From Candidatus Saccharimonadota bacterium (GTDB taxonomy: Bacteria > Patescibacteriota > Gracilibacteria > UBA4473): DNA of 32,000 nt. The stretch lies in NCBI GenBank assembly GCA_030429505.1, contig JAUIFI010000001.1:540001-572000 (forward strand). The letters are read 5' to 3'. A program made the position numbers and the translations under genes. Shown here piece by piece: positions 1-26,826 of this stretch (positions are counted from its first letter, which is position 1; the number at the start of each line of letters is the position of its first letter). A model generated the notes under the pieces. It worked only from the letters and a program-made list of their open reading frames with translations, was not told the origin of the DNA and ran no database searches.

Positions 1-1078
1 ACATCGGTTGATCTGGAGATACAGGAATAAAAGCATGATCACATAAAAGAGGACCATCGGTTGGACGACACATCAGAGTCACATCATTAACTCGTCCCCT
101 CTTCTCATAAACCTCTTGATCTTCTGTGAACTTAATCATAAAAGTATGCTTTGCATAAATTTTACCATCTTCAGGATTGCGCTTAGTTTCCGCCCCCACA
201 AGCAGTATAAATTCAATGATTTTTCCGTCTCCATCAGTCTTTTCAATCTCCTGACGAACTTCTCTCACGGCACCAAAACGTCCTGTCATAAACGTGCTAA
301 CAATAGCATATGCTCCCAAAATCAAAATAATTCCTCCCACAACCCCAATCATTGTTTTCTTGGCTGTCTCCATCCGACCTGAATCACCAAAAGAAGTAAT
401 CAATGTAAACCCTGCCCACACTCCAGCCACTACCCCTCCAGTCGCTGCTATCGTCAATAAAAACATTGTCCATCGCAAAGCTAAAAAAATCAAATCGCCT
501 TGCGTTATAATACCTTTTTCAATATTACACCGCACAAAACGAGCACTACGTCTTAGTCCTCCTCCATCATAAACAGGTCGTTCTGCTGTCGTCGGGAAAA
601 AAGCATCCAGTAAATCTCCCGTACCAACATTATTAATATCCGAAAAACCATTAATAACACTACCAACAGCCCCTACACCATCTCCCACAGCTCCCACAAT
701 ATCTCCAACTCCACGAACAGCTCCTCCCACGCCAGCCCCTAATGCCTCTCCAAAACCAAGCTCTCTAGGATCACCGCCAGAAAAACCTGCCGCTTCCTGA
801 ATACTTTCTCCCGCAGAATCAAGCCCTCCTGACAAAAAATTAAGCCCTCCTCCAACTAACTGAAAAGGATCTCCCAGCTGAATTCCAAAACGATCATTCA
901 AAAGATCAAGTAAACATTCACTATCTAAATCCCCTAGTTTCAGACCATCAAGTCGAGAAAGTGTTTGATCATCCAAAATTCTCGCAGAAGCATGATTACC
1001 AAAAAACAAAGCCAAAAAAATTCCTCCCACCAAAACGGCTTGTTTAAGGCAAGAACAAAATCTCATAAGAAAAGACAT
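1..1078 (-). CDS. TrbC/VirB2-like 'T4SS pilin'-domain membrane protein, paralog 1 (C-terminus runs off the left window edge)
   Basis: The minus-strand frame is open from the ATG at 1078 to position 2 with no in-frame stop. It is missing from the ORF track only because it leaves the window. The N-terminus MSFLMRFCSCLKQAVLVGGIFLALFFGNHASA looks like a signal peptide or anchor, followed by a Gly-rich GxxG tract. Then comes WTMFLLTIAATGGVVAGVWAGFTLITSFGDSGRMETAKKTMIGVVGGIILILGAYAIVSTF: two hydrophobic helices joined by a short polar loop, the pattern of TrbC/VirB2-type pilins and the CPR T4SS_pilin family. About 295-1160 is a nucleotide-level paralog of about 1655-2510. Confidence 0.7.
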   Translation of the reverse strand, partial: MSFLMRFCSCLKQAVLVGGIFLALFFGNHASARILDDQTLSRLDGLKLGDLDSECLLDLLNDRFGIQLGDPFQLVGGGLNFLSGGLDSAGESIQEAAGFSGGDPRELGFGEALGAGVGGAVRGVGDIVGAVGDGVGAVGSVINGFSDINNVGTGDLLDAFFPTTAERPVYDGGGLRRSARFVRCNIEKGIITQGDLIFLALRWTMFLLTIAATGGVVAGVWAGFTLITSFGDSGRMETAKKTMIGVVGGIILILGAYAIVSTFMTGRFGAVREVRQEIEKTDGDGKIIEFILLVGAETKRNPEDGKIYAKHTFMIKFTEDQEVYEKRGRVNDVTLMCRPTDGPLLCDHAFIPVSPDQPM

Positions 1079-1116
1079 TCAACGCTTCAAAAAGAAAGAA
1101 AAAATACACACCGCAC

Positions 1117-1146
1117 ATTGTCCCACGTTTCCACCAAAAGAGTCAA
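1117..1146 (-). promoter_or_regulatory. Candidate sigma70-type promoter of pilin-like paralog 1
   Basis: On the coding (minus) strand the sequence reads TTGACT (1146-1141), 18 nt, TGgGACAAT (-10 at 1122-1117), about 38 nt upstream of the ATG at 1078. The same arrangement is conserved upstream of paralog 2. Confidence 0.4.
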
Positions 1147-1162
1147 ACACCACAAAGAACAC

Positions 1163-2434
1163 TTAACGAGTTCGCTCAGTATACAGAGGCGTAATAGAAA
1201 CAGACTGTGACTCCATATGTCCAGAATCAGTACGAATATTCAGTCGCATTTGATGAGGCGCTTTAACAGTTATTTTTGAAACACCAAAAGCATACGTTAC
1301 TTTTCCTCCCGAAAAAGGCACTGCAACAGAATCTTCAAAATCACAAAGATTTACCGAACCGGAAGGCTCACAAAAAAGACGAGCCGATTCAACAGCCCCA
1401 TGCTCAGTATCATTAAAACTCACTTCGATATCATAATTCATTGTAGGAAAGCGCCTTCCTGGACCAGGAGGAGTATTATAAGGCCCTCCTACCACACGCA
1501 AAACGCCAATAACAGTATCCGAACTTTCATAACCATCATCATAACCACCATTTTCTGATTCATTATCACCTTTATTGTTAGGCTGTTCCTGATCTCCAGG
1601 AGGAGATGATAATGGAATCGATGCAATTGGACCGAATCTAGACTGAAGAAAAGTATTAACAATAGCATACGCACCTAAAATCAAAAGAACGCCAGCTATT
1701 ACTCCCAAAAGAGTTTTTTTAGCTGTCTCAATACGATCACTACCAAAAGCAGTAATCATGGAAAAACCTGCCCACACTCCAGCCACAACTCCAGCAATAG
1801 CCGCTATAGAAAGTAGAAGTTTCGTCCATCCCAAAATCAAAGAAATCAAATTTTCCTGAGTCGAAAGTCCTCTATCGAGATGACACCTCACAATACGAGC
1901 ACCACGCTTTGATCCGGGTCCATCAAAAACAGTATTTTGAGCGCTTCCCGGAAAAAAAATATCCAAAACATCTTTCGTCCGAATGTTATTAATATCAGGA
2001 ATCCCATTAATAGCTCCCCCCACAGCCCCTAAACCATCACCAACAGCACCAGTAATATCTCCAACTCCACGAACAGCTCCCCCCACACCAGCTCCTAGAG
2101 CTTGACCAAAGTCGAGTTCTCTCGGATCTCCTCCAGTAAAACCCGAAGCTTCCTGAATTCCTTGTCCAACAGAGTCCAACCCTCCAGACAAAGCATTAAG
2201 ACCCCCTCCAACCCAATTCAAGGGATCTCCCAATTGCAACCCAAACCTATCATTCAAAAGATCAAGCAAACATTCACTATCTACATCTCCAAGCTCCAAT
2301 TTATCAAGTCTGGAAAGTGTTTGATCATCCAAAATTCCCGCAGAAACATAGTTACCAAAAGACAAAATTAAAAACACTCCCCCCATTAGACCAACGTATT
2401 CAAAGACAGAGCAAAACCTCGAAAATAAAGACAT
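1163..2434 (-). CDS. TrbC/VirB2-like 'T4SS pilin'-domain membrane protein, paralog 2, with appended C-terminal domain
   Basis: The ORF track start at 2446 is a TTG. The ATG at 2434 (MSLFSRFCSV) aligns with the paralog 1 start MSFLMRFCSC. The architecture is a signal/anchor, a Gly-rich tract (GAGVGGAVRGVGDITGAVGDGLGAVGGAINGI), a two-helix pilin core (LLLSIAAIAGVVAGVWAGFSMITAFGSDRIETAKKTLLGVIAGVLLILGAYAIVNTFL), an acidic low-complexity linker (PPGDQEQPNNKGDNESENGGYDDGYESSD), and a roughly 110-aa C-terminal domain unrelated to paralog 1. Confidence 0.8.
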   Translation of the reverse strand: MSLFSRFCSVFEYVGLMGGVFLILSFGNYVSAGILDDQTLSRLDKLELGDVDSECLLDLLNDRFGLQLGDPLNWVGGGLNALSGGLDSVGQGIQEASGFTGGDPRELDFGQALGAGVGGAVRGVGDITGAVGDGLGAVGGAINGIPDINNIRTKDVLDIFFPGSAQNTVFDGPGSKRGARIVRCHLDRGLSTQENLISLILGWTKLLLSIAAIAGVVAGVWAGFSMITAFGSDRIETAKKTLLGVIAGVLLILGAYAIVNTFLQSRFGPIASIPLSSPPGDQEQPNNKGDNESENGGYDDGYESSDTVIGVLRVVGGPYNTPPGPGRRFPTMNYDIEVSFNDTEHGAVESARLFCEPSGSVNLCDFEDSVAVPFSGGKVTYAFGVSKITVKAPHQMRLNIRTDSGHMESQSVSITPLYTERTR

Positions 2435-2470
2435 TGAGAACTTCAAAAAAAGAAAAAATATTCACAATCC

Positions 2471-2500
2471 ATTGTTCCACTTTTTACCCTAAAGAGTCAA
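2471..2500 (-). promoter_or_regulatory. Candidate sigma70-type promoter of pilin-like paralog 2
   Basis: The minus strand reads TTGACT (2500-2495), 18 nt, TGgAACAAT (-10 at 2476-2471). Sequence and spacing are conserved with 1117-1146. Confidence 0.4.
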
Positions 2501-2585
2501 ACCCTCCTGACACCCCAAAAAAGCTACAGAAAGACTACCAAAAAACAATGATTTGTAGTATAATAAAAGGATATTTCGCAACAAA

Positions 2586-2930
2586 ATGATTGAAGAAAAA
2601 AAATCTACCATTCTCCAACTTCTCAATAAAAGCTTCATTATAAGCCCCGAAGTCAAAGAACAAGTTGAAACAAAAATACAATCAACCCCCCCTGAAAAAC
2701 TCGAACCAATACTCGATGCTCTCATTCCATTACTCAAAGAAGATCAAGAAAACGAAAATCGATTACTCGAAAAAATAATCGAAGTAAATCCTAATTTTCT
2801 CGCCGAAGTAAATCAAGTCGTCAATGAAAACATAAAAGAGCAAACCAAAGAAGCCGAAGTCGAAAATAACCAGAAAGAAGAAAAAGAAATAGCCAATATA
2901 GAAGAAGAAATGAACGACGCTTGGACCTAA
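2586..2930 (+). CDS. Hypothetical small acidic protein (114 aa)
   Basis: The ORF has an ATG start, and its stop lies 6 nt before the ATG of the next gene (2937), suggesting an operon. The protein is Glu/Lys/Asn-rich and I recognise no motif. It is transcribed divergently from the pilin-like genes. Confidence 0.55.
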   Translation: MIEEKKSTILQLLNKSFIISPEVKEQVETKIQSTPPEKLEPILDALIPLLKEDQENENRLLEKIIEVNPNFLAEVNQVVNENIKEQTKEAEVENNQKEEKEIANIEEEMNDAWT

Positions 2931-2936
2931 AGCATC

Positions 2937-5819
2937 ATGAAAAAAATACAAAACGGGCTCTTTCATCCATACTCATCACAGAAGTTTTCTGAAAAGATAC
3001 CTTTTTTTATTTTTCAAGAAAAATCAAATAATGACGTCATAACAGACGTAAAAAATTCCCTCAAACAAAACAGTGAACACAAAAACGAACAAACAACCGA
3101 AGAACGATACAAGCAACTGGAAGATCTTAGAAACAATCTGCATGAAAAATTCAAAGACAAAGTTTCCGATCCCAAAAAACTCATGGATCGGATCAACGAA
3201 CTCATTATAAATTCTGTTACTGGAAAAGGGAAAGAAGCTCCCAGACAAATAGACTTTCAGTTTACTGGCGCACTCATCGAAGGTCAAAAAGCAGGCTTAG
3301 GATCCAACGAATTTGGTATTTACAAACAAACCCTCGAAACCGCCATCACTAGCATCATATTAGATGAAAACATAGATCAACATGATCACCTACAAATCGC
3401 CAACATCAGACAAAAATTCGAATCTACTGGGGAAGGGTTGCAGGATCATGCCACTTTAGCCGGAACTGCCAAAATCAAAATCGATAAAAAAGCTGAATCA
3501 AACAGTATGGTTCAAGAGATCAGAGAAATTCGAAATAAAATCTACCAAGAACAGCTATCTCCCGCCCTCAAAAACAATCCAGAAGCAAGAACAAAACTAT
3601 GGAACAAAGTCAGCGAACTTCTCAATAACGCTATTCTGAACATAGAATCTCCTAACAGCGAATTCGTTCACTCAGGAGAAAAATTTGAATTTGATCTTGA
3701 TAAAGGACTTGATCGAGGAGAATTTGAAGCCTACAAAAAATACCTTGAAGGATCAATTCGAGCAATACTATTGCGGACAGATATTGAAAACAATCCCCAA
3801 TTAAAAACTCTCTCCGAACAAGAAAGAAAGCAAGCTCAACAAATTCTCACCTTCTGCCCAGAAGCCAAGGCACTCATTGAAACAGGACAAGTTCCATTGG
3901 AACAAATAAAAGCCCGCGCCACCATTTTCAACAAACTCAAAGAAGTCTCTGGACATCTCGGTGATATGACCACATCTCAAGAAACCATCGATCACACAAC
4001 AAATCTCGTCAAGAGAATCCAAAGTGACATAATGAAAAATGGATTCAATCCAAACTTAGAAATCAACACAAAATTTGAACAATGGGATGGAGCTCAAGAT
4101 GCTGAATATAGTTGGACATTCCAAAAAATATCACAATCAGAATTTCTTGCTCGAATTACTAACGACACCAGTCTCATAACCGAAGCCTTCCCAGGGAAAA
4201 TGGTAAAAGCCTCTCCCGTTCTCAGAAAATTCAAAGAAATATCTCCTGAGTCTGAAGAAGCGAAACAAGTAGATCGCCTCAAAACCCTTATTAAAAATTT
4301 CGAACAATGGGAAGGCAAAGGCAATGATCCTGAAGTCCAAAAAGCTCTCCTTAATGCTTCTCAATATCTCAACTCAGGAAAAGTCGAAGCCATTGAATCT
4401 GCAAAAGACCAACTCAAAACAATCATGAGCTACGACAAGAACTATATAGACGTAGACAAAATTTCGACAAGCGATCAAGACCTAGCCTTCGCTCTTCGAA
4501 AAATGGAAAAATACAGGGAATCAGGAAGCATCATGCTCAAAGAAGCATTCGGTCAAAAACAAGATGCAATTAATCAAGCCATTGATGAAGGTAAATCAGA
4601 CGAAGAAATACAAAAGGAATTATCAAAACCTTCAAAATACACCGAAAATCTAAACGAAGAAGGAAAAAAACAAGTCACAAATATACTCAATGAAGCCGGA
4701 AAATTAGAAGAATCTGGCGCTATCAAACAAAAAGCCGCTGAAAAATACGATCAGATCATGCGAGCACTTTCCGCGCAACCACTCAACGCCGACTTCCTCG
4801 ACAAACTTTCTGCCAACAAAGCCGATATAGTCGACGCCATCGGAACAGATTTAGCTCTCCGTCAATCCATCGCCACCAGTGTCCGTGAATTCGGAGACAA
4901 AAACCTCGGTGACACACTCAAAGCTTACAGCGACATGGAAGGACTTGGAAATTTTGATCTTTCTGACGCAAATGAAAAACTCGCTGGAGAAATCGCCATA
5001 GCCCTAGCAACCACAGTAGCCATCACCGTTGTTACCGCTGGGCTAGGCACAGCTGCTTCTGGAGCCGGATTTGTCGGAAGACTCGCCGCCAGAGGACCAA
5101 GATTCGCACGACTCGCACGTGGACTCAAAAGAGCAGCTCAAGTCGTACAAAAAGGAATTCACGTTCTCGAACACCCTCTCGGAAGCGTCGCTAAATTTAG
5201 CGAAAAATTTGGAAAACACGGTGCTAGCATTGCTCAAAAAATCAACCATCTTGCCCATCACTACAAGTATATCCATGAAGCTGAACACGTCCTCGGACAC
5301 ACACTCACATTCACAGCATTTCAAACAGGAGTTAGAACAGCCATGTCAGGAAACCTATCACTCAAATACATAGCAAAAGACTTCACCGGAAATCTTAAAT
5401 TTTATGCAACTATGGGATCAGCTGGAGCATTACTAAAAAGTTTCAAAAATCTAGAATCTATAGGGAAGCTTCTAGGAAATACAAAAACTCTTACAGGAGC
5501 AAAAGTTGAGACTAAAATTGACAGCTACGGCAAGCATCTTTTAAACACTGGAAAGCAAGTCACCGAAAGCGTTATAAAAAGCAATGAAGAAAAAAATAAA
5601 GAACAAGATCCTAAAAAAGCCTACGAAGCAGAATTCGAAGAATTCGAAGAAAATCTTTACGTCTTCGCTAATGAACTTGAAGGAAAACTCAGCCAAACCG
5701 ATCCCCTCCCAAAAGCAAGTCCTGATGATAAAATCGCTATGCTCATAAATCAAATAATCCAGCAAGATCCCACATCCTTTAAAAAAGATTTTCCAAACGT
5801 GTACAAATATATCAGTTAA
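2937..5819 (+). CDS. Large hypothetical protein (960 aa), Lys/Glu-rich helical, with one Ala/Gly/Thr-rich hydrophobic segment
   Basis: This is a long uninterrupted ORF with coding-like composition. It contains an apparent internal duplication of about 85-89 aa (3117-3372 vs 3519-3786). A hydrophobic stretch AGEIAIALATTVAITVVTAGLGTAASGAGFVG (about 4984-5080) is followed by a basic, His-rich region. I recognise no catalytic motif. Confidence 0.85.
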   Translation: MKKIQNGLFHPYSSQKFSEKIPFFIFQEKSNNDVITDVKNSLKQNSEHKNEQTTEERYKQLEDLRNNLHEKFKDKVSDPKKLMDRINELIINSVTGKGKEAPRQIDFQFTGALIEGQKAGLGSNEFGIYKQTLETAITSIILDENIDQHDHLQIANIRQKFESTGEGLQDHATLAGTAKIKIDKKAESNSMVQEIREIRNKIYQEQLSPALKNNPEARTKLWNKVSELLNNAILNIESPNSEFVHSGEKFEFDLDKGLDRGEFEAYKKYLEGSIRAILLRTDIENNPQLKTLSEQERKQAQQILTFCPEAKALIETGQVPLEQIKARATIFNKLKEVSGHLGDMTTSQETIDHTTNLVKRIQSDIMKNGFNPNLEINTKFEQWDGAQDAEYSWTFQKISQSEFLARITNDTSLITEAFPGKMVKASPVLRKFKEISPESEEAKQVDRLKTLIKNFEQWEGKGNDPEVQKALLNASQYLNSGKVEAIESAKDQLKTIMSYDKNYIDVDKISTSDQDLAFALRKMEKYRESGSIMLKEAFGQKQDAINQAIDEGKSDEEIQKELSKPSKYTENLNEEGKKQVTNILNEAGKLEESGAIKQKAAEKYDQIMRALSAQPLNADFLDKLSANKADIVDAIGTDLALRQSIATSVREFGDKNLGDTLKAYSDMEGLGNFDLSDANEKLAGEIAIALATTVAITVVTAGLGTAASGAGFVGRLAARGPRFARLARGLKRAAQVVQKGIHVLEHPLGSVAKFSEKFGKHGASIAQKINHLAHHYKYIHEAEHVLGHTLTFTAFQTGVRTAMSGNLSLKYIAKDFTGNLKFYATMGSAGALLKSFKNLESIGKLLGNTKTLTGAKVETKIDSYGKHLLNTGKQVTESVIKSNEEKNKEQDPKKAYEAEFEEFEENLYVFANELEGKLSQTDPLPKASPDDKIAMLINQIIQQDPTSFKKDFPNVYKYIS

Positions 5820-5898
5820 AAAAACAAAACCCCTGTAAAAATAAGCCCAAATCTAAACCAATAGACTTGATCAAAAATCATGCTACAATAATCAAGCT

Positions 5899-6957
5899 AT
5901 GCAAGACAAAGCAAATCAATTGATCAAAGAATTTGAACAACTCGAAAAAGAGTTGTCAGATCCTGATGTCTACAACGATCAAGCAAAAGCAGCGAAACTC
6001 TCACAAAAGAGAAAATCTCTGGAACACAAAGTTGAACTTGCACGAACCTACATCAAACTCCACAAAACAAAAATCGGCAACGAAGAGCTCCTCAAAACCG
6101 AAAAAGATCCTGAAATGATCGAGCTGGCAAAAGAAGAACTTGACCAAGTTAAAAAAGAAATTCCTGAAGTCGAAGAAGCACTCCGAGTCGCCCTCATCCC
6201 CACCGATCCAAATGATGAACGTAATGCCATTATCGAAATCAGGGCTGGAGTAGGAGGAGATGAGGCTAGTCTCTTTGCTGAAGAAATCGCCCGCATGATT
6301 ATGCGATTTAGTGAAAAATGCGAATTTCAAAACGAACTCATTTCTGAAAGCACCAATGAAAATGGCGGCATCAAAGAAACCATTTTCAAAGCGATTGGAT
6401 TTGGAGCCTATGGAAAACTCAAATTCGAAGCTGGTGTCCACCGTGTCCAACGCATCCCCGTTACCGAATCACAAGGTCGGGTACACACTTCTGCCATATC
6501 AGTCGTCGTCATGCCCGAAGTCGAGGAGTCTGTCATAGAGATAGATCTCAATGATGTACGAGTCGACGTCTTTCGCAGCTCCGGCTGTGGAGGGCAATCC
6601 GTCAATACGACCGATTCTGCAGTCCGATTAACACATATCCCATCGGGTATCGTCGTCACCTGTCAGGACGAAAAATCACAACTCAAAAATAAAAACAAAG
6701 CCTTTGGAGTCCTACGTGCACGACTCTTTGCACTCGAAGAAGAAAAACGACAAAAGGAATTAGGAGAAAAAAGACTCGCTCACATCGGATCAGGAGACCG
6801 GTCAGACAAGATCAGAACTTACAACTTCCCACAAGACAGAGTCACCGATCACAGAATTGGACAAAATTTTTCCAACCTTCCTTCGATCATGGACGGGAAT
6901 ATCGATAAGATTGTGGAGGCATTAGCGATTGAAGAACAGAAGAATTTTTTAGAATAA
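5899..6957 (+). CDS. prfA: Peptide chain release factor 1
   Basis: The protein carries the GGQ motif (SSGCGGQSVNTTDSAVRLTH) and the RF1-specific PxT tripeptide (RIPVTESQGRVHTSA). Its full length is typical at 352 aa. Confidence 0.97.
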   Translation: MQDKANQLIKEFEQLEKELSDPDVYNDQAKAAKLSQKRKSLEHKVELARTYIKLHKTKIGNEELLKTEKDPEMIELAKEELDQVKKEIPEVEEALRVALIPTDPNDERNAIIEIRAGVGGDEASLFAEEIARMIMRFSEKCEFQNELISESTNENGGIKETIFKAIGFGAYGKLKFEAGVHRVQRIPVTESQGRVHTSAISVVVMPEVEESVIEIDLNDVRVDVFRSSGCGGQSVNTTDSAVRLTHIPSGIVVTCQDEKSQLKNKNKAFGVLRARLFALEEEKRQKELGEKRLAHIGSGDRSDKIRTYNFPQDRVTDHRIGQNFSNLPSIMDGNIDKIVEALAIEEQKNFLE

Positions 6958-6974
6958 AAAAGTCATTCCAATTT

Positions 6975-7001
6975 GTCATTCTGAATTTATTTCAGAATCT
7001 C
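6975..7001. repeat. Palindromic REP-like element, copy 1 (GTCATTCTGAATTTATTTCAGAATCTC)
   Basis: The element has an 8-bp stem (attctgaa/ttcagaat) with a 4-nt loop, flanked by GTC...CTC. It sits immediately 3' of prfA. Confidence 0.6.
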
Positions 7002-7022
7002 TATTCTCTTATAACTACCTTT

Positions 7023-7049
7023 GAGATCCTGAATCAAGTTCAGGATGAC
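7023..7049. repeat. Palindromic REP-like element, copy 2, inverted orientation (reverse complement GTCATCCTGAACTTGATTCAGGATCTC)
   Basis: The reverse complement matches copy 1 at most positions, including the GTCAT and ATCTC ends. The stem is atcctgaa/ttcaggat. It overlaps the 3' end of the weak ORF 7040-7246. Confidence 0.6.
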
Positions 7050-7246
7050 AAAAGACACTTATCAATCCACAAAATAATAAAAGGAACTACAGTAGCCGCT
7101 CCCAAAGCCCACATAGCTACTGTATGAGCTCGTATAGAATTGTCATTTGCTTGTTTCGCAGTTTTTCTCGCTTCTTTGAGTTCTAAATAATCAATATACT
7201 TAAAAGCAGCGTCAAAAGACAAAATATAATAATATACATACGACAA
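7040..7246 (-). CDS. Hypothetical small protein with C-terminal hydrophobic helix (68 aa); weak call
   Basis: The start at 7246 is a TTG with no ATG alternative. It lies 9 nt after the stop of the upstream ORF. There is a single hydrophobic helix, VAMWALGAATVVPFIILWI. The 3' end overlaps a palindromic element. Confidence 0.3.
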   Translation of the reverse strand: MSYVYYYILSFDAAFKYIDYLELKEARKTAKQANDNSIRAHTVAMWALGAATVVPFIILWIDKCLLSS

Positions 7247-7255
7247 AAGAGTTTT

Positions 7256-7528
7256 TCAGTTTTTCTGCTCTTCAATAGTTTCTTCTTTCTTATAAAGAAA
7301 AATTGACTCAAGAGGAGCAAGTCCCGAATTTCTATTTCGATCAGCATGACCAAAATGAGCTATTACAAATTCTTTTTCCCAATCAGATAACACTAAATCT
7401 GCTAATACTTGTTCTTTTGTAAAACCTTCGCAATGATCTATACCATATTCCAATAATTTTAAGTAAATACTATTTCTAAAGTCACCTTTTTTCATTTTAA
7501 ATAAATACCAGTTGATTCTTCTCGACAT
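7256..7528 (-). CDS. Hypothetical small protein (90 aa, or 79 aa from the ATG at 7495)
   Basis: The ATG at 7528 overlaps the clpB 3' end by 32 nt and is preceded by AAGGTGA-like sequence. The alternative ATG at 7495 lies 1 nt after the clpB stop. No motif is recognised. Confidence 0.45.
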   Translation of the reverse strand: MSRRINWYLFKMKKGDFRNSIYLKLLEYGIDHCEGFTKEQVLADLVLSDWEKEFVIAHFGHADRNRNSGLAPLESIFLYKKEETIEEQKN

Positions 7529-10034
7529 CCGCCTTCACCTTCCCCTGCACCGTCCCTTCCAAAATCTGCAACGCCAGAGGATTCAAAAGCTCTCGCTCCA
7601 AAACCCTACGCAACGGTCTCGCTCCAAAAACCGGATCATAGCCCTCCTTCGTCAGCCACTCTTTGGCTTTTTCAGATAATTCCAAAGTAATCCCCTGCTC
7701 CGCTAAACGCTTCGCAATATCAGACAACTGTAACTCTAAAATTGCTCGCATCTGATTCTCTTTCAAAGACTCAAACCCTATCATATCATCTAAACGATTC
7801 AGAAGCTCCGGGCGAAAGAAACGAGATAGCTCTTTTCGTAACGTTTTATCATCCGGTACTTTTCCATCCGCAAATAAATCCGTCGCCAGATTTGACGTCA
7901 AAATCACAATCGTATTTTTGAAATTCACCTTTCGTCCCTTACTATCGGTCAAATGCCCTTCATCCAAAATTTGCAAAAAGAGATTAAACACATCCGGATG
8001 AGCCTTTTCCACCTCATCAAAGAGCAACACACAGTACGGACGCCGACGAACCTTATCCGTCAACTGTCCCCCTTCGTCATGACCGATATACCCCGGAGGA
8101 GCACCGATCAACTTTGCCACCGAATGAGATTCCATATATTCAGACATATCAAATCGCAAGAGAGCTTCTCGAGAATCAAAAAGCGTCAACGCCAAAGTCT
8201 TCGCCAACTCTGTCTTTCCCACCCCCGTCGGACCTAAGAATAAAAACGAACCAATTGGACGATCCATTGAAGACAAGCCCGCCCTCGAACGACGAATCGC
8301 ATTCGAAACAGACACAATCGCTCGCTCCTGCCCGATCACATGTTTATGAAGTTCTTGTTCCAATTTTGCCAACTTTTCAGACTCTTTCTCTGTCAACCTT
8401 TGGGCGGGAATTCCTGTCCAGCGAGCAATGATTTCCGCGATATCAGTTTCGGTGATTTCTTCGCGAAGAAGTGAATTTTTTCCAGTCGCCTTTTCCTGCA
8501 AATTTTTCAGCTTCTTTTGTAACTCCGGAATCTGACCATGCTCTATCTCCGCCAATTTTGCATAATCAGAATCTCTACGCGCATGATCCGCTTCGAGTCT
8601 CAAGTGATCAATCTGCTCCTTGAGAGAAGTAATATCTTCCACAGCCGATTTTTCTAACTGCCATTGAGCCTCCAAATTTTTCAACTGATCCTTTATTTCT
8701 GCAATTTGTTTTTCAATCTCACTCAAACGTTCTTTTTTCGTGCCCTCCTTTTTCAATGCCGCTCGCTCGATTTCCAAAGTCAAAAGTTGTTTCTTGAGAT
8801 CAGCAATACTCTCCGGTTCAGACTCGATCTCAAGCTTCAATTTACTCATAGACTCATCAATCAGATCGATAGCTTTGTCGGGTAATTTTCGATCAGGAAG
8901 ATAACGAATCGATAAATCCACCGCCGCAATCAAGGCATCATCCTTAATCCGAACCCCATGATGAAGTTCATATTTTTCCTTAATTCCCCGCAAGATCGCC
9001 AGAGCTTCCTCAAACGTCGGCTCTTCCACCGAAACCGGTTGAAAACGACGTTCCAACGCTGGATCTTTCTCGATATACTTACGATATTCACCCAAAGTCG
9101 TAGCTCCGACACAGTGTAAAGTTCCACGAGCAAGTGCAGGTTTCAGCAAATTCCCTGCATCCATAGAACCTTCCGCCGCACCAGCTCCGACAATCGTATG
9201 CAATTCGTCGATAAAAAGAATAATACGTCCTTCAGCCTTTTCGATGGCTTTAAGAACATTTTTCAACCGATCCTCAAACTCTCCCCGATACTTCGCTCCA
9301 GCCACAAGTGCCGCCATATCCAGCATCAAAACCCGCTTGTTTTTGAGCGACTCAGGCACTTCTTTTTTATAAATCTGAAACGCCAGACCTTCGGCGATCG
9401 CCGTCTTCCCCACCCCAGGATCTCCAACCAATACGGGATTATTCTTCGTACGACGAGACAAAATCTGGATCGTACGACGAATCTCTTCATCACGACCGAT
9501 AATCGGATCAATCTTCCCTTTCTCCGCCAGTTCAGTAAAGTCTACACAATATTTATCCAAAGCCTCCAACTTCTCATGTCCATCGGGAGAATCTATTTTT
9601 TCTCCTCCTCGCAAAACTTCTACCGCCTCTTGAACACTTTTTTTATTCAAGCCTAAGGACTCCAAATCAGACTTCGCTGTCGAGCTACCTTCGAAAATTG
9701 CCACCAGTAAATGCTCAATGGACAAATATTCATCCCCCATTTTTTTCTGCACTTTTTCGGCATTCACGATCATTTGTGAGAAATCACGACTGGGATTTCG
9801 CTGTCCTCCCTCAATCTTCGGAAAATTCGACACTTTCTCTCGGAAATGAGACTGAATTGTCGTAGGCAACAGACCTACCTTTTGAAAAATCTTATGAGCA
9901 AACGAATCTTTATCCGCCAAAAGTCCAAGCAAAAAATGATCAATCTCGATATTCACCGCCCGACACTCCTCCGCAACTTTTTGCGTTTCAGCAATCGCAT
10001 GACTCGCCGCCGTGGTCCATTTATCGAAGTTCAT
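7497..10034 (-). CDS. clpB: ATP-dependent chaperone/disaggregase ClpB
   Basis: The protein has a Clp N-domain and two AAA+ modules with Walker A motifs [10 protein letters not shown] and [11 protein letters not shown] long coiled-coil middle domain separates them, which distinguishes ClpB from ClpA/ClpC-short forms. Length is 845 aa. Confidence 0.97.
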
Positions 10035-10049
10035 GAAATAATAGATAAA

Positions 10050-10076
10050 TTAGCAGTCTGGATTATAGACTGCTAA
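10050..10076 (-). promoter_or_regulatory. CIRCE-like inverted repeat (putative HrcA operator): TTAGCAGTC-N9-GACTGCTAA
   Basis: This is a perfect 9-bp inverted repeat with a 9-nt spacer. It differs from the CIRCE consensus TTAGCACTC-N9-GAGTGCTAA by one symmetric substitution per arm. It lies 16-42 nt upstream of the clpB ATG. Confidence 0.6.
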
Positions 10077-10089
10077 CAAAAAAAAGCAA
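10062..10089 (-). promoter_or_regulatory. Candidate clpB promoter (-35 TTGCTT, 16-nt spacer, -10 TATAAT)
   Basis: The minus strand reads TTGCTT (10089-10084) and a perfect TATAAT (10067-10062). The -10 hexamer lies inside the spacer of the CIRCE-like repeat. Confidence 0.5.
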
Positions 10090-10092
10090 GGA

Positions 10093-10128
10093 AAAAACGC
10101 CGCCTTCAAAGAAGAAAAACGACGTTTT
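10093..10128 (-). terminator. Candidate Rho-independent terminator after the small membrane-protein ORF
   Basis: The minus-strand RNA reads AAAACGUCG...CGGCGUUUU, a stem with one G-U pair, followed by a U-rich run. It abuts the stop codon at 10127-10129. Confidence 0.45.
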
Positions 10129-10309
10129 AATCCGGAACTTGGGTTTTCTTACTCCACAACATCCAAATGATTACTCCAATCACAAGAACAAAAAAACTCC
10201 ATGGCCAATAAGCCCAAACAAGCATCCCAAAAAAGAGAATCCAAATCATGACTAGCCCAAATATTTGCCCACGATGAACATTATTTTTTTGCGCCATCAA
10301 TAGCTCCAT
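10127..10309 (-). CDS. Hypothetical small two-helix membrane protein
   Basis: I trimmed the ORF track entry 10127..10468 to the ATG at 10309 (MELLMAQ; another ATG is at 10297), because the longer form overlaps the upstream gene. There are two hydrophobic helices: IFGLVMIWILFFGMLVWAYW and FFVLVIGVIIWMLW. Confidence 0.45.
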   Translation of the reverse strand: MELLMAQKNNVHRGQIFGLVMIWILFFGMLVWAYWPWSFFVLVIGVIIWMLWSKKTQVPD

Positions 10310-10427
10310 ATATAAGAAGTGAAAAAAGACAATTCCGGAAAGAGCCGTTCTCAAAAACAATTTTTTTTTAGCAAAAAAAAGTCTAACAAGAGAACTTAAT
10401 TTTACATTAAAAATGAGGCAATATTTG

Positions 10428-11336
10428 TCAAGATTTCCAAGTAATATTCTCCATCCTTTCAGGAGCATGTTGAGATTTTTTTATTCGTAAAGCATAAAGT
10501 GAAGGTTTATCTTCTGATGAATGTCTATAAACAATCATGTCATTCACTATCCTTCGATCTTTCATTACATCCTGAAATTGTTCTAAAAACATCTGGTACC
10601 GTTCAAGCTCCATATTTAACTTAGGCATTTGCGTATATATTTCTCCTCCACGAGCCAATAAGCCATAAGATCTTTGAAGAAGTTTAAAGAAGACATACAA
10701 ATATTCTTGCGGATGACTATAAGCAAAGCTCTGTTGCTTTGATTGATCATAAGTAAGATTATCAAGGTCAAAAGGATGGCGAGGTCTGCATGTAATAATA
10801 TCAAAACCAGATATCCCATATTGATTCATATAGTCCCGTATCTTCTCCCAATCTGAAAAATCAAAAATATTACCTTCTATAACATGTTCAATTTGCTGAA
10901 GCACTTTGGGTATAGATTCTGCTATTGCATCAATCGGCTCTTGAGAGAAATGATAATGATTCCTCGGATCAACTAACTCAAATCCAACTCTTTGTACTGA
11001 TTCTCCTTTCTCAAATCCGGAAACTCCAGGACCCATCAAATCCAAGAAATAAACAGGTTCTTTTTTTCCTGATTCCAACTTCCTTTCTTTTTTCCTTTGA
11101 AGTTTATTTTCTACCAGATCAGAAAAAGTTACCTTCGTATCCTTTTTCTCCCCCAAAGCCTTCAAAAGAAGTTTTCGAAAATAGTGATCATAAGACCCTA
11201 AATCAGCAGCAGGTCTTCCATAAGTTTGCCAGTGAGCATCTCCCTCAGACAAAATTTTCTTATCCTCTCGAGTAACTTTCTTCCCTCGAGCAATTTCATT
11301 GTTTAAGATTTCACGAAGTTCTGAAAATTTTTCCAT
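10428..11336 (-). CDS. Hypothetical protein (302 aa), possibly a divergent Rossmann-fold methyltransferase
   Basis: The ORF is clean with an ATG start. Weak resemblance to class I SAM-MTase motifs is present: VYFLDLMGPGVSGF (motif I-like), GFELVD (acidic end of beta2) and FDIITCRP (motif IV-like). The function is not established. Confidence 0.7.
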   Translation of the reverse strand: MEKFSELREILNNEIARGKKVTREDKKILSEGDAHWQTYGRPAADLGSYDHYFRKLLLKALGEKKDTKVTFSDLVENKLQRKKERKLESGKKEPVYFLDLMGPGVSGFEKGESVQRVGFELVDPRNHYHFSQEPIDAIAESIPKVLQQIEHVIEGNIFDFSDWEKIRDYMNQYGISGFDIITCRPRHPFDLDNLTYDQSKQQSFAYSHPQEYLYVFFKLLQRSYGLLARGGEIYTQMPKLNMELERYQMFLEQFQDVMKDRRIVNDMIVYRHSSEDKPSLYALRIKKSQHAPERMENITWKS

Positions 11337-11609
11337 CCCACAAGAGAAACTATAAACTCATCCCTAAAAAACAAATAGTAAATAAAAAAGGAAAAAAGAA
11401 AAAAAACGAGTATATAGAGACATCATTGTCATGAAAAATGAAATATAAGTGAAAAAAGTATCAAAAAAGCATCGAAAAAATTATAAAAAAAGACTAGTCA
11501 AAGCATGTTCCGTAAGCAAACGGGATCCAAGATTTCCCCATTTCAAAAACGGACCATAAAGTCAGAGCTCTTTAGCAAATCGCCGTAAAACATTTCACAG
11601 GAGTCTATT

Positions 11610-12164
11610 ATGACCAGAAATGCTATCAATGAAGTAATAGTCTTCATCGGATTAGAAAAAATCATCAATTATTTATTGCCTCAAACAGGCAATACATTAT
11701 GTAAGTCACGAAAATCTGGTATAGCCTACAAAAAAATTCCCATAAATTATCAAAATAAAAAACACATCCTCGATGCTTTTCATTTAGTAACAGAAGGAAT
11801 TCTAACCACTCCAACACTTTATGTAGTTGTAATAACACCAGACGCTCCCACGATTTTATTGGAAAAAACCAATCACTTAGCCGAATACATCAGTAATGCA
11901 GATAAGGAATTTCCACAAGGAAAATTCATCCTTGTCTCTGAAGAAGATGTCCCCATATTCCTACCGATATCAGAAACAAACACCATAAAGAAAGCACAAA
12001 ACACATCTCCCGAAGACAAGGAAAAAGAATACAGAAGCCTCTTATTTCGCGGAATAAAATCATATGCCCTAGAAATGTCTTTAGCAAATCCACCCCAAGG
12101 AACCTGGTGTCGAAAAATCAACAAAATATCTCAATCAATACGGTATATATTCGGTTTTTCATAA
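11610..12164 (+). CDS. Hypothetical protein (184 aa)
   Basis: The ATG is preceded by AGGAG (11599-11603) with a 6-nt spacer, and a strong terminator follows at 12190-12228. I recognise no motif. Confidence 0.6.
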   Translation: MTRNAINEVIVFIGLEKIINYLLPQTGNTLCKSRKSGIAYKKIPINYQNKKHILDAFHLVTEGILTTPTLYVVVITPDAPTILLEKTNHLAEYISNADKEFPQGKFILVSEEDVPIFLPISETNTIKKAQNTSPEDKEKEYRSLLFRGIKSYALEMSLANPPQGTWCRKINKISQSIRYIFGFS

Positions 12165-12189
12165 TGACTCACATCTCCCCTCATACCCT

Positions 12190-12228
12190 AGCTCTCTTCC
12201 AAAAAACTTCGGAGGAGAGCTTTTTTTT
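12190..12228 (+). terminator. Rho-independent terminator
   Basis: An 11-bp stem (AGCTCTCTTCC / GGAGGAGAGCT, one G-U pair) with a 10-nt loop is followed by T8. Confidence 0.8.
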
Positions 12229-12276
12229 CAAATAGATTTGACAACAAATGAAAAATAAAAACAATGAGATCTGAAA

Positions 12277-12299
12277 GATGATTGATTCTCTCAATCATC
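12277..12299 (+). promoter_or_regulatory. Perfect 9-bp hairpin in the nusA leader (GATGATTGA-ttctc-TCAATCATC)
   Basis: This perfect inverted repeat lies 58 nt upstream of the nusA ATG and is followed by GGTCTTTTGGG. It could be a leader attenuator or an operator; the function is unproven. Confidence 0.35.
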
Positions 12300-12356
12300 G
12301 GTCTTTTGGGAGAGTTTTTTAATGTATATCTTCTACTTTCCCACATATCATTCCCC

Positions 12357-13649
12357 ATGCAAAGTCGACTCCAAGCCGCCATTAATCAACTCTGTGCCGA
12401 AAAGAATCTTGATGCTGATACCGTCATAGAAGCCATAGAAAACGCCATTGCCATTGCTTATAAAAAAGATTTTGGCACCCCCAACCAAAAAATAAAAGTT
12501 CACCTCGGAGATGACATCGCCGAAATGAAAATTTTTGAAATACGAGAAGTCGTAAAAAAAGTCGAAGATCATGAACTCGATATCAGTGAAAAAGACGCAA
12601 AAAAAATTCGCCCAGATGCCCAAATAGGAGAAACTGTTTTTGTCAACGTACCCCCTCATGAACAATTTGGACGTATCGCTGCTCAGACTGCAAAACATGT
12701 AATGAACCAGAAACTGCAGGAAGCTGAAAGAGAAATGCTTTTCAAGAAATTCAAAGATCGAGAAGGTCAACTCCTCAACGCTCAAGTCCAAAAAGTCGAT
12801 CGAGATGCAGTGCTTTTGGAAATAGATAGTGTGACTACCATGCTGTTCAATAGAGATCAAATCCCAAATGAAAAATACTTCACCGGACAACGTCTGAAAG
12901 TCTACCTCGATAAAGTAGAACTCACTCCCAGAGGCCCTCAACTCCGTATTACTCGCACGAATCACAACTTTATTAGAGCACTCTTTGAGCAAGAAATTCC
13001 AGAAATGAGAGAGGGGTTTGTCTATGTTGCAAAAATGGCTCGTGAGGCAGGAGTACGATGCAAAATAGCCGTAGCATCAGAAGATTCTTCTATCGATCCC
13101 GTAGGAGCATTCGTCGGACAAAGAGGTTCGCGAATCAATACCGTCATGGAAGAAGTCGGAGACGAAAGACTCGATATTATCCAGTACTACGAAGATCCGA
13201 AAAAAATGCTTATCGCCGCCCTCGCACCAGCCAAAGTCGCCAAAGTAGAATTCTTTCAAGGAGATAAAGGCGAAGATCGGGTAAAAATCTACGTTCGTGA
13301 AGAAGAGCGAGCCGTTACCATCGGTCGAGGAGGACAAAACGTCAGATTAGCCGGAAATCTTATCGATATGCAAGTAGATGTCATTACTTTTGACGGTCCA
13401 CTTGAAGAAGATGAATCCGCAGCTCCTGAAGTCGCCAAAGAAAAGGTCAAAAAAGAAGTATCAGAAAAAGTGACCATCAATGAACTGGAAGGAGTTGATG
13501 AAGAAGTGATAACTACGCTCACCGAACTCGGACTTTCACAAATCAAGCAATTTGAGGGCCTCAAGGCAGAAGAACTTGCCGAAATCGGCATCACAATCGA
13601 ACAAGCCGAATCAGTTCTCAAGGCGGTTGGGAAATACTTGAAAAAGTAA
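12357..13649 (+). CDS. nusA: Transcription termination/antitermination factor NusA
   Basis: The typical NusA N-terminus is present (LQAAINQLCAEKNLDADTVIEAIENAIAIAYKK), followed by S1-like and two KH-like regions (GSRINTVMEEVGDERLDII; IGRGGQNVRLAGNL) and a C-terminal HhH-like tail. The start was moved from 12282 to the ATG at 12357, because the 25-aa hydrophobic extension is not NusA-like. Confidence 0.93.
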   Translation: MQSRLQAAINQLCAEKNLDADTVIEAIENAIAIAYKKDFGTPNQKIKVHLGDDIAEMKIFEIREVVKKVEDHELDISEKDAKKIRPDAQIGETVFVNVPPHEQFGRIAAQTAKHVMNQKLQEAEREMLFKKFKDREGQLLNAQVQKVDRDAVLLEIDSVTTMLFNRDQIPNEKYFTGQRLKVYLDKVELTPRGPQLRITRTNHNFIRALFEQEIPEMREGFVYVAKMAREAGVRCKIAVASEDSSIDPVGAFVGQRGSRINTVMEEVGDERLDIIQYYEDPKKMLIAALAPAKVAKVEFFQGDKGEDRVKIYVREEERAVTIGRGGQNVRLAGNLIDMQVDVITFDGPLEEDESAAPEVAKEKVKKEVSEKVTINELEGVDEEVITTLTELGLSQIKQFEGLKAEELAEIGITIEQAESVLKAVGKYLKK

Positions 13650-13655
13650 AAAATA

Positions 13656-13685
13656 ACCGCTGTATAAAACAAGCGGCTATTTTTA
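13656..13685. terminator. Candidate bidirectional terminator between convergent nusA and the FG-GAP gene
   Basis: The stem CCGCTGT / ACA(A)GCGG (7 bp with one bulge) has a 5-nt loop and is followed by CTATTTTT on the plus strand. Confidence 0.5.
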
Positions 13686-13707
13686 GTGTGCCTGTTTTCA
13701 GTTATGA

Positions 13708-15456
13708 CTACGGTAACACCGGAGCACACATACCAGATTTACTACCAAAGTTTACCGTAGCACTATTTTTAAGTCTGCATTTACTCTGACTCGGAGCATC
13801 CCACGTGAAATTGTTGGTAACCGTAACCGTCACATTATGAGCTAGTTTGGTAATATCTCCTGCATCAATCGTCAAATCATCAGCTGTAACTGTGGAGCCA
13901 TTTCCCACAAAAGCATCTCCCTCTTCCGATAAAATACATGCCTCCGTCGCATCAATCGTATAATGATTACTATCGGCAACTCCCTTACGACCATCCAAAC
14001 TCACAAAATCCCCCACTAAATCAACACCATTCGCTACCGTAATCACCCCAGGAGACTCAATATCAAGTACCTCCCGAGACAAATTCGACATAATGCGCAA
14101 ATGTTTGTAATTGGCTCCGCCATCGCGACCAAAGTCAGTCGAAACATACGTATCTAAATCCTGCAGACTAAAAACTTTAAAGACCCCAGACACTCCAGCC
14201 TGCGTATCATAATCTGAACGAATCTGGCACGAAGAAGTACTTGCTGAAACCAAAGCCGGTAAATCAAATACATACGCCGATCCTCGACTCTCTTCGTGAG
14301 TCTTGGATCCAATCACAACCCTATCTGATGATAAAGTTACCCATTCACCAAATCTATCATTTTCTCCTCCATCATTCATAAACAAACGATACTCTTCACT
14401 CCAAGTCCCTTCAGAACGAACAAAGACATAAGCTGATCCAGAATTCGTTCCATTATCATCATCCAGCATTTCTCCGACCACCAAACGATCTCCCTCAATG
14501 TCAACTGATTGCCCAAATCGATCCTCACCGGTACCACTTACTGAAAACAATCGCGCTTGTTGAACCCAACTCCCCCCAGAACGATCAAAGACATACACAG
14601 ACCCTTCATTGTTATCATAATGAGATCCTACTGCCAACGAATCTCCATCAATACTTACTGAGAAACCAAATTCATCCAGAGCTGAAGCATCACTAGCAGT
14701 CAATTTAGCCTCCTGACTCCAACTCCCTCCAGAATACACAAAGACATATACCGATCCAGCGTTGTTAGCATCTCCAATAGCACTAGCCACAAACCGATCT
14801 CCATCTATCGCTACTTTTTCTCCAAACTGGTGAGCTATCACCGAGTCAGGTACCGTTAATTTTTGTGATTGGCTCCAAGTCGTCCCAGAACGATCAAAGA
14901 CATATACTGATCCAGAATCAATCTGATTATCATCATCAAATTTAGCCCCCACTACAGCACGATCCTCTTGCACCGCTACACCGACTCCAAACTTATCATT
15001 CGTCGCACCATCAGAAGCGGTTAACTTTGCTTGCTCAGACCAAGTCATCCCCGAACGCACAAAGACGTAAGCTGAACCCCGACCACCATCATCACCTTCT
15101 GCCCCAATGACCACTGTATCACCATCGATACTTACCGAAAAGCCAAAATGATCATTTTCTGCACCATCAGAAGCTATCAGTTTTGCCTGTTGACTCCAAC
15201 TCCCCCCAGAGTGAACAAAGACATAAACAGAACCCGATTCAAGTCCATTATCGTCATCAAACGGAGTTCCTACCACCACCGTATCACCATCTGCATCAAC
15301 AGAACTCGCAAAAAAATCCTGGACCGCTCGATCAGCAGCTTCCAAAACATTATCCTCAACTCGCGACGAAGCATGAGAAATTAAAGGCAATATTAAAACA
15401 GCAAAAAATAAAACCCAAACAAAACGAACACGATACCGATGTTTTCCAGAAAACAT
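13708..15456 (-). CDS. Secreted seven-blade FG-GAP-like beta-propeller protein with a C-terminal beta-rich domain
   Basis: A signal peptide is present (MFSGKHRYRVRFVWVLFFAVLILPLISHASS). Seven tandem repeats of about 51-55 aa follow the pattern D-x-FG-x-SV-x-IDGD-x-VVIG-x(6-10)-GS-(A/V)-YVF-x-RSG-x-W-x(3)-KL (nt 14260-15318). The C-terminal roughly 180 aa are unassigned. Confidence 0.85.
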   Translation of the reverse strand: MFSGKHRYRVRFVWVLFFAVLILPLISHASSRVEDNVLEAADRAVQDFFASSVDADGDTVVVGTPFDDDNGLESGSVYVFVHSGGSWSQQAKLIASDGAENDHFGFSVSIDGDTVVIGAEGDDGGRGSAYVFVRSGMTWSEQAKLTASDGATNDKFGVGVAVQEDRAVVGAKFDDDNQIDSGSVYVFDRSGTTWSQSQKLTVPDSVIAHQFGEKVAIDGDRFVASAIGDANNAGSVYVFVYSGGSWSQEAKLTASDASALDEFGFSVSIDGDSLAVGSHYDNNEGSVYVFDRSGGSWVQQARLFSVSGTGEDRFGQSVDIEGDRLVVGEMLDDDNGTNSGSAYVFVRSEGTWSEEYRLFMNDGGENDRFGEWVTLSSDRVVIGSKTHEESRGSAYVFDLPALVSASTSSCQIRSDYDTQAGVSGVFKVFSLQDLDTYVSTDFGRDGGANYKHLRIMSNLSREVLDIESPGVITVANGVDLVGDFVSLDGRKGVADSNHYTIDATEACILSEEGDAFVGNGSTVTADDLTIDAGDITKLAHNVTVTVTNNFTWDAPSQSKCRLKNSATVNFGSKSGMCAPVLP

Positions 15457-26791: not shown

Positions 26792-26826
26792 AACTCGAAC
26801 ACTTATAATTAAAGTTCGAGTTTTTT
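26792..26826 (+). terminator. Rho-independent terminator of nrdA
   Basis: A perfect 9-bp stem (AACTCGAAC / GTTCGAGTT) with a 13-nt loop is followed by TTTTATTTATT. It overlaps the prfB stop codon on the other strand. Confidence 0.65.

Follow-up and report, generated by a model that had tools for sequence, protein, structure and literature searches.

Tandem pilin-like genes and their diverged C-terminal domains in a patescibacterial gene cluster

Two adjacent genes encoding pilin-like proteins, here called A and B, lie at the left end of a 32,000-nucleotide stretch of DNA from a Candidatus Saccharimonadota bacterium (GenBank assembly GCA_030429505.1, contig JAUIFI010000001.1, positions 540,001 to 572,000; hereafter the window), and they raise the question of how two copies that share an upstream region and an N-terminal part came to carry such different C-terminal domains. 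A previous reading of the window, made from its letters and hereafter called the sequence-only reading, proposed that a constant membrane module displays unrelated and exchangeable heads. The analyses conducted here point to another history. Judging from their sequences, the heads that directly follow the module in A and B are diverged homologues and not unrelated cassettes, and the pair is an old duplication of a promoter together with its gene. We consider it probable that the locus is a surface-display or adhesion cluster built on pilin-like modules, in which A and B represent a tandem duplication of the first gene.

Duplication and divergence of the two genes

Both genes are read from the minus strand, to which all features of A and B given below belong. 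A single BLASTN alignment joined the two regions (window 1148..298 against 2502..1657; 74.5% identity over 858 columns, E = 6e-101), demonstrating the duplication and essentially recovering the repeat that had been placed at 295-1160 and 1655-2510. The copy in gene A (paralog 2 of the sequence-only reading), at 1657..2502, comprises a promoter-like site, the 5' leader and codons 1 to about 260, and its counterpart in gene B (paralog 1) occupies 298..1148. Similarity begins about 68 nucleotides 5' of each ATG (positions 2434 and 1078) and extends to codon ~268, in the motif GAYAIV(N/S)TF..RFG, with 78% identity between the copies in the 64 aligned non-coding nucleotides upstream of the start codons. 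The candidate promoter of gene A (TTGACT-18-AACAAT with TG before the -10 element; 2471..2500), recognised as a consensus match, keeps its position in the paralog, where the corresponding site (TTGACT-18-GACAAT; 1117..1146) falls within the 84-nucleotide spacer between A and B. Because the alignment starts upstream of both ATGs and the site of B sits in the spacer after the stop codon of A, the duplicated unit is the promoter and the gene together. At the protein level A and B are 68% identical across residues 1-270 and about 20% identical beyond them (55% overall).

The heads are found in this second, poorly conserved part. In gene A an acidic low-complexity linker (residues 266-303, 38 aa, 7 D+E against 2 K+R; 1526..1639), absent from B at the same place, leads to a C-terminal domain of about 120 aa (residues 304-423, with Cys355 and Cys364; 1166..1525) that is beta-rich, with strands in a low-confidence model, in keeping with the acidic linker and beta-type domain previously described for this paralog. 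Gene B carries in the equivalent position a beta-rich domain of ~115 aa, C1 (residues ~285-398, of which 285-359 lie in the window at 2..226; Cys337 and Cys346), delimited by alignment and a low-confidence model, and continues outside the window with an acidic linker of ~95 aa and a second beta-rich domain, C2. Comparison of the head of A with C1 gave an end-to-end Smith-Waterman z of 6.6, none of 2000 shuffles scoring as high, and BLASTP of the two domains alone yielded E = 1e-4 at ~20% identity. MAFFT on the full proteins independently paired the same two domains, and both contain the motif C-[ER]-P-x5-L-C-D, at +51 and +52 from the start of the domain. For this pair, and by the standard that the sequence-only reading had set for itself, these results refute the view that the C-terminal domains of A and B are unrelated and exchangeable: the 'different sequence' said to follow the breakpoint is indeed different as DNA, but at the protein level it is homologous. 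The relationship was not detected by HMMER alone; jackhmmer with the three head domains against all fetched open reading frames (ORFs) and proteins matched only their own parent proteins, and a word-indexed homologue search with the C-terminal domain alone (1166-1549) returned zero matches, the parent protein included, and is hence uninformative for a short orphan domain such as this. None of the heads matched Pfam, even at E <= 10. An origin of the heads from PKD repeats was rejected at the sequence level, as hhalign gave 0.4% probability between the A/B head profile and 13 PKD repeats of neighbouring proteins.

Over the shared N-terminal module, the proportion of synonymous differences (pS) between A and B was 0.515, with a synonymous divergence (dS) of ~0.87, a non-synonymous divergence (dN) of 0.24 and a dN/dS of ~0.27. 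The aligned heads had a pS of 0.598, against 0.594 for random codon pairing, and a dN of ~0.98. The membrane module is under purifying selection, and the putatively exposed C-terminal domain evolves about four times faster. From the measured rates we estimate that a near-neutral domain is expected to be ~15-25% identical at this duplication age, and the step in similarity thus requires no cassette exchange.

Exchange by recombination, in which unrelated C-terminal cassettes are swapped onto a constant pilin module with a breakpoint after helix 2 to generate a polymorphic filament or adhesin family, we regard as quite improbable. It would fit the abrupt end of nucleotide similarity after codon ~268, the presence of the 38-aa linker in A only and of an extra linker and second domain in B, the fact that C2 showed no detectable relationship to the other heads (z = 1.7, hhalign E = 0.11), and the existence of a few relatives with other tails (for example, P0005 and the Cys-rich P0058). 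The domains directly past the module are, however, end-to-end homologues in A and B, a near-neutral domain at dS ~0.9 is expected to be ~20% identical without any exchange, and the homologue searches and contig motif scans brought up no close relative in which the head is a different one.

The same data bear on partial gene conversion, which would have homogenised the 5' ~860 nucleotides of an older duplication, from the promoter to helix 2, and left a sharp divergence step behind. Such a process would explain why pS in the N-terminal module is below saturation when that of the C-terminal domain is at the random level, why the 64 non-coding nucleotides upstream are so similar, and why dS is lowest in the first 45 codons (0.48) and rises in the 5' to 3' direction (0.93, 0.92, 0.63, 1.01 and 1.29 in the following parts). 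Nevertheless, a dS of 0.87 is still large, which means that any conversion was not recent, the conservation upstream is explained by selection on the promoter and leader, and ordinary purifying selection (dN/dS of 0.27) can account for the step at the protein level. We therefore view gene conversion as unlikely. That one of the copies is a decaying pseudogene whose 3' part drifted or was frameshifted is an exceedingly improbable explanation. The 3' ends and lengths do differ greatly (423 against 637 aa), but both ORFs are intact and preceded by a conserved promoter-like site of their own, the in-frame alignment of the 3' parts retains the Cys pairs, the shared part shows the constraint given above, and translational coupling ties gene B to the gene that follows it. 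With a dS of ~0.87 the pair is also no recent duplication undergoing frameshift decay, a scenario that the sequence-only reading had named as one that would undo its proposal.

A homologue search with gene A matched only three proteins. P0001 is gene A itself with a deposited start at Met17; P0002, encoded on the same 1,023,206-bp NCBI contig as P0001, is gene B (deposited with 633 aa, or 637 aa if the upstream Met is taken as the start); and P0003 is a metagenomic relative of 273 aa that also adjoins prfA and has no C-terminal domain. A and B, at 68% identity, are closer to each other than to the headless P0003 (47% and 45%, respectively), and for this reason the head was gained in this lineage before the gene was duplicated. 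Scans of genome and metagenome contigs with N-terminal motif patterns confirmed no locus. Gene A (1163..2434, 423 aa plus the stop codon) was delimited from the ORF list, from the alignment at residue 1 with its paralog and P0003, and from its identity to P0001 over the 407 aa of the latter. The ATG at 2434 is favoured over both a TTG at 2446 and the Met17 of the deposited entry, since the additional segment (2386-2434) provides an N-terminus that aligns with those of the paralog and P0003 (M1, R6 and F7 being invariant) and a better signal peptide. Gene B runs off the window, as previously stated; the window includes the first 359 of its 637 codons (1..1078), and the remainder was read from L001 (5974-7887), a Logan contig that carries P0001, is identical to the window where they overlap and supplies 10 kb of left flank.

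Beyond helix 2 the tails measure 155 aa in A and 367 aa in B. Among the best 150 relatives, 142 end no more than 30 residues past helix 2, which bears out the earlier remark that an appended domain is atypical for the family, and syntenic orthologues of the first gene in other loci have tails of 0-55 aa. On both counts a C-terminal head on the first gene of the cluster is rare, occurring in ~3% of relatives.

The two-helix module and the N-terminal region

The module shared by A and B belongs to a superfamily of conjugative pilins, although this membership becomes apparent through their relatives. In gene A it covers residues 195-265 (1640..1852) and includes an ETAKK loop, its limits resting on Pfam scores, hydropathy and alignment to the neighbouring gene product; in gene B residues 195-266 (281..496) were assigned from the T4SS_pilin score and alignment. 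Gene A scored 21.0 bits in full length and 25.1 bits as the core alone on T4SS_pilin (PF18895, threshold 26.6), and 20.4 and 23.3 bits, respectively, on TrbC (PF04956, threshold 27.9), with gene B at 18.3 bits on T4SS_pilin and 11.0 bits on TrbC. The NCBIfam model for Mbov_0395 family pilin-like conjugal transfer proteins (NF045849) matched the same residues weakly. The protein encoded next to gene B, of 1642 aa, passed both Pfam gathering thresholds with 28.3 bits each, and its module is 41% identical to that of gene A (E = 2e-11). Moreover, all 21 relatives in the core alignment matched both families, the best with E = 2.5e-12 (T4SS_pilin) and 3.9e-8 (TrbC). Because the relatives and the neighbour match where A and B stay below the threshold, the two proteins are placed in the VirB2/TrbC/T4SS_pilin superfamily by transitive homology, and the resemblance of the core to these pilins that had been suggested from the letters is upheld in this form. 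A profile of the N-terminal module retrieved 5058 clusters at E <= 1e-3 among 1.84 billion representatives, the common core corresponding to profile positions ~160-270, and the conserved core in these relatives consists of a pre-helix motif of ~35 residues (PVFDGPGxxxGA...) and the hairpin.

Hydrophobic segments in gene A comprise residues 7-32, 199-228 and 241-262, and the low-confidence model has helices at 193-228 and 235-267. The loop between the last two segments, SDRIETAKKT, contains three K+R; in the 21 relatives K80 of its AKK motif is invariant, and A79 and K81 are nearly so. The loop is basic, the N-terminal region and the linker are acidic, and paired Cys residues are confined to the parts that are putatively outside. 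Hydropathy, charge and Cys pairing are thus consistent with the classical topology, with a signal peptide, both ends outside and the basic loop inside.

The predicted Sec-type signal peptide spans residues 1-33 in gene A (cleavage ..VSA/G; 2336..2434), from the hydropathy peak at residues 7-32 and a reading of the sequence, and residues 1-32 in gene B (cleavage ..ASA/R; 983..1078), from alignment and hydropathy. It is followed by an N-terminal ectodomain (residues 34-194 in A, 1853..2335; residues 33-194 in B, 497..982, by alignment with A), which in gene A contains the DSECLLDLLNDRFG motif with Cys55, a Gly-rich stretch and the pre-helix motif VFDGPGxKRGARIVRC with Cys184. The two Cys codons lie at about 2270-2272 and 1883-1885 of the window, and gene B has Cys at the same positions. 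An upstream C-[ILMV][ILMV]-D motif occurred in 8 of the 12 relatives that have the VRC Cys and in none of the 117 without it. This co-occurrence suggests a Cys55-Cys184 disulfide linking an N-terminal helix to the pre-helix segment. The N-terminal extension of ~190 aa, previously regarded as atypical, turned out to be ordinary, N-terminal extensions of widely varying length being the rule among relatives. Neither A nor B contains the class III prepilin motif (G|F/M-T-L-x-E) of type IV pilins and type II secretion pseudopilins; in contrast to type IV pilins, which have a single N-terminal hydrophobic helix, they have a Sec-type N-terminal signal and their hydrophobic hairpin at residues 195-265.

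In 30 of the best 150 relatives the profile matched a single polypeptide at least twice, and many of these proteins are concatenations of 2-8 VirB2-like two-helix modules. Such relatives include P0006, P0009, P0019, P0041 and P0075, and the loci L033, L035-L037, L039, L041, L049 and L051; several loci show the gene order of a three-module gene, a two- to three-module gene and a PKD giant. We know of no covalently linked pilin modules in the classical type IV secretion system (T4SS).

Neighbouring genes and related loci

On L001 the order is gene A (4618-5889), gene B (5974-7887), the 1642-aa protein (7880-12808) and a multi-transmembrane PKD protein of 734 aa (12882-15086), to the left of which follow a small ORF and a Na/Ca exchanger. 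The stop of gene B overlaps the start of the 1642-aa protein by 8 nucleotides. In this giant a signal peptide and a short N-terminal region precede the two-helix module, after which come an acidic linker and a long tail of PKD repeats, so that three consecutive genes on the same strand contain a pilin module. Further copies had been anticipated to the left of the window, and this third gene is one, in the form of a giant with a PKD tail.

The arrangement is conserved. When a collection with one genome for each species, which lacks the genome of the window, was scanned with the core profile, it yielded 58 loci from Gracilibacteria, Peribacteria/Peregrinibacteria, Altimarinota and other Patescibacteria metagenome-assembled genomes. 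At 33 of them the gene immediately after a pilin-like gene encodes a protein that has a pilin module at its N-terminus and a tail of 297-2701 aa, and PKD repeats were present in 34 of the 34 giant tails examined. The constancy of the kind of tail in these orthologous giants is a further point against the swapping of cassettes, and the idea of display put forward in the sequence-only reading survives in part, as pilin modules with large extracellular domains are a conserved theme of the lineage. Among 82 large neighbour ORFs of 18 loci, 20 have PKD and 12 have SLH domains, and the usual order is the pilin-like gene, the PKD giant, a transmembrane PKD protein (~735 aa, orthologous to the 734-aa product on L001) and an SLH protein (~820-860 aa). 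The downstream genes of L004-L031 show this pattern of PKD giant, transmembrane PKD and SLH protein, and no SLH gene was seen within the reach of L001.

The remainder of the window codes for housekeeping functions, including prfA, clpB, nusA, ribonucleotide reductase, prfB, ftsZ, ftsA and others. An origin of the pair from a mobile element was considered and rejected; the surroundings are housekeeping genes, the adjacency to prfA is kept in L002 and the GC content is unremarkable. Between the pilin genes and prfA lie two divergently transcribed genes for proteins of 114 aa (2586-2930, plus strand) and 960 aa (2937-5819, plus strand) without Pfam match, and a 144-aa ORF of L002 (1023-1457, minus strand), differently placed relative to prfA, resembles the former by eye. 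Two PCRF/RF-1 release factors are encoded at 5899-6957 (plus strand, 352 aa) and 26825-27898 (minus strand), and the presence of both fits the standard genetic code, in contrast to the UGA recoding seen in many Gracilibacteria. The use of prfB and a clean reading in code 11 agree with a Peribacteria-like member. A 497-aa protein (20168-21661, minus strand) has a Por_Secre_tail domain, the C-terminal sorting domain of the type IX secretion system (32.6 against 27 bits), which is unexpected in a genome of the candidate phyla radiation (CPR) type. Two further predicted surface proteins are one of 582 aa with seven FG-GAP repeats (13708-15456, minus strand) and one of 758 aa with a Fib_succ_major domain (16974-19250, plus strand). 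All 2-kb bins of window 1-32000 show very strong strand asymmetry (GC skew from -0.07 to -0.44, AT skew mostly positive), the minus strand being G/T-rich throughout regardless of gene orientation.

Surface display, membrane anchoring and known pili

In the surface-display cluster that we favour, A and B stand at the head of a conserved envelope cluster of Gracilibacteria/Peribacteria-type CPR bacteria. Each product would start with a Sec signal peptide, continue with an N-terminal ectodomain that is acidic and Gly-rich and probably held together by the Cys55-Cys184 disulfide, and then form a helical hairpin of the VirB2/TrbC/T4SS_pilin type whose short lysine-rich loop would be directed to the cytoplasm, or to the lumen if the module is assembled. 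Past helix 2 an extracellular beta-rich head would follow, carried on an acidic spacer in A and succeeded in B by a longer acidic spacer and the second beta-rich domain. The hairpin would insert in the membrane and associate sideways with other pilin modules, building either a membrane platform or a short fibre like that of VirB2. The bulk subunit would come from the short gene and the adhesive one from the PKD giant, and the ectodomains would thereby be exposed beyond the wall, where they could touch a host or partner cell. After the duplication purifying selection held the module as the C-terminal domain diverged almost to saturation, giving two homologous heads that may differ antigenically or functionally.

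Several results weigh against this interpretation. A and B themselves stay below the Pfam gathering scores, as given above, and PDB profile searches with the N-terminal module and with the core matched no solved pilin by sequence. VirB4, VirB6 and TrbL, which the sequence-only reading had proposed to look for leftwards, are absent from the 32-kb window, and T4SS assembly genes (VirB4, VirB3, VirB6 and others) are absent both from it and from the 10 kb to its left; likewise, no T4SS ATPase family was found in at least 2 of the 82 neighbour ORFs of the 18 loci. AlphaFold2 with three-row alignments gave a predicted local distance difference test score (pLDDT) of 35.8 for gene A and 39.0 for full-length gene B, and models of this quality make a comparison of the head folds and of hairpin packing unusable; Foldseek against the PDB on such a low-confidence model returned tandem beta-sandwich matches at template modelling scores of 0.2-0.3 only, a hint and not evidence. 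Finally, a domain of 120-370 aa on every subunit, or of 1500 aa on the giant, may be hard to fit sterically on a VirB2-type helical fibre.

Part of this evidence would also suit a VirB2-like hairpin that forms no pilus at all and, independently of any T4SS, was co-opted simply to anchor wall-spanning surface proteins or S-layer-associated proteins in the membrane by its two helices. The conserved PKD and SLH neighbours and the missing ATPases agree with such an anchor, and tails of up to 2701 aa and 2-8 concatenated modules look more like polytopic membrane proteins than fibre subunits. The T4SS genes of Gracilibacteria, however, reportedly do not cluster but are dispersed (PMC12102498), which makes missing adjacency weak evidence, and the strong conservation of the module and its lysine-rich loop over 5058 clusters suggests more than a passive anchor. 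We hold the anchor to be somewhat unlikely. A more ambitious proposal would be a novel surface appendage of Gracilibacteria/Peribacteria-type CPR bacteria, located away from T4SS loci, with a short pilin-like body, a co-assembled PKD-adhesin paralog of up to 2700 aa, 2-8 concatenated modules in some lineages and wall ties through SLH and transmembrane PKD proteins, of which A and B would be a lineage-specific elaboration with a fast-evolving head on the body subunit. In this full form the proposal is speculative and rather unlikely.

Mature classical conjugative pilins are of ~70-130 aa and are not known to have anything past helix 2. VirB2 of the T-pilus, TrbC of RP4 and TraA of F share with A and B a signal peptide and a pair of hydrophobic helices joined by a short basic loop, with both termini placed outside, as is predicted for A and B, and with hairpin similarity at the Pfam level; polymerisation of A and B would be putative. 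Classical pilins are assembled by a co-encoded machine that contains VirB4. A and B have no sequence match to any solved pilin. Type IV pili have minor pilins with large domains, and the tip adhesins of chaperone-usher and sortase pili are adhesive minority subunits. By analogy, the pairing of the short gene with the PKD giant would follow the same logic as these adhesin-bearing minor or tip subunits, a shared polymerisation or anchor module being combined with a large adhesive domain in a minority subunit whose gene adjoins that of the major one. The modules of those pili are nonetheless unrelated to the one described here, our sequences have no class III prepilin, chaperone-usher or sortase signals, and the known tip protein of the T4SS pilus is VirB5 and not a VirB2 paralog (PMC12857230).

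The closest published systems are the VirB2-like arrays of Patescibacteria (Wang et al. 2023, PMC10633639; Quinonero-Coronel et al. 2025, PMC12102498), which, like the three consecutive genes of this locus, are tandem divergent genes with PF04956/PF18895 modules in CPR-type genomes. Arrays of 2-11 divergent VirB2-like pilin genes, lying in tandem or with one gene between them, occur in 383 Patescibacteria assemblies, and a pilin gene is found near virB4 in 1135 of 1948 assemblies (PMC12102498); in Southlakia epibionticum the arrays are essential (PMC10633639, PMC12857230). The published arrays consist of small pilins, often inside or near a virB4 cluster, whereas here there is no virB4 within ~40 kb, and the three genes code for 423, 637 and 1642 aa, with extracellular domains past helix 2 and PKD and SLH partners. 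Array pilins share 25% identity on average and 54% at most (PMC12102498), beside which A and B stand at 55% and A and the module of the giant at 41%. Very large membrane-localised PKD-repeat proteins with a proposed role in host recognition have been described in Vampirococcus lugosii, an episymbiotic CPR bacterium of a related lineage (PMC8080830), where neither a VirB2-like N-terminal module nor the pairing with a short pilin-like gene was described. A limited literature search turned up no account of a VirB2-like module joined to a C-terminal ectodomain or a PKD array, nor of concatenated modules or a pilin/PKD/SLH cluster.

What VirB2-like arrays do, essential as they are in the one genetically tractable patescibacterium, has yet to be settled in the literature (PMC10633639, PMC12857230). 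The locus described here, together with the 33 related loci of the same gene order, indicates that one large CPR lineage routinely fuses the module to big extracellular domains of adhesin type, pairs it with proteins that bind the cell wall and encodes it at a distance from virB4. These loci offer a testable alternative to the conjugative pilus, namely an adhesion or anchoring apparatus based on pilin modules. The head-bearing, PKD-fused and concatenated modules are natural constructs for asking whether VirB2-type modules carry C-terminal cargo. The history of A and B also advises caution, as an abrupt loss of nucleotide similarity between paralogs is not by itself proof of cassette exchange. 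The broader pattern worth following is that of pilin modules carrying giant adhesins away from T4SS loci.

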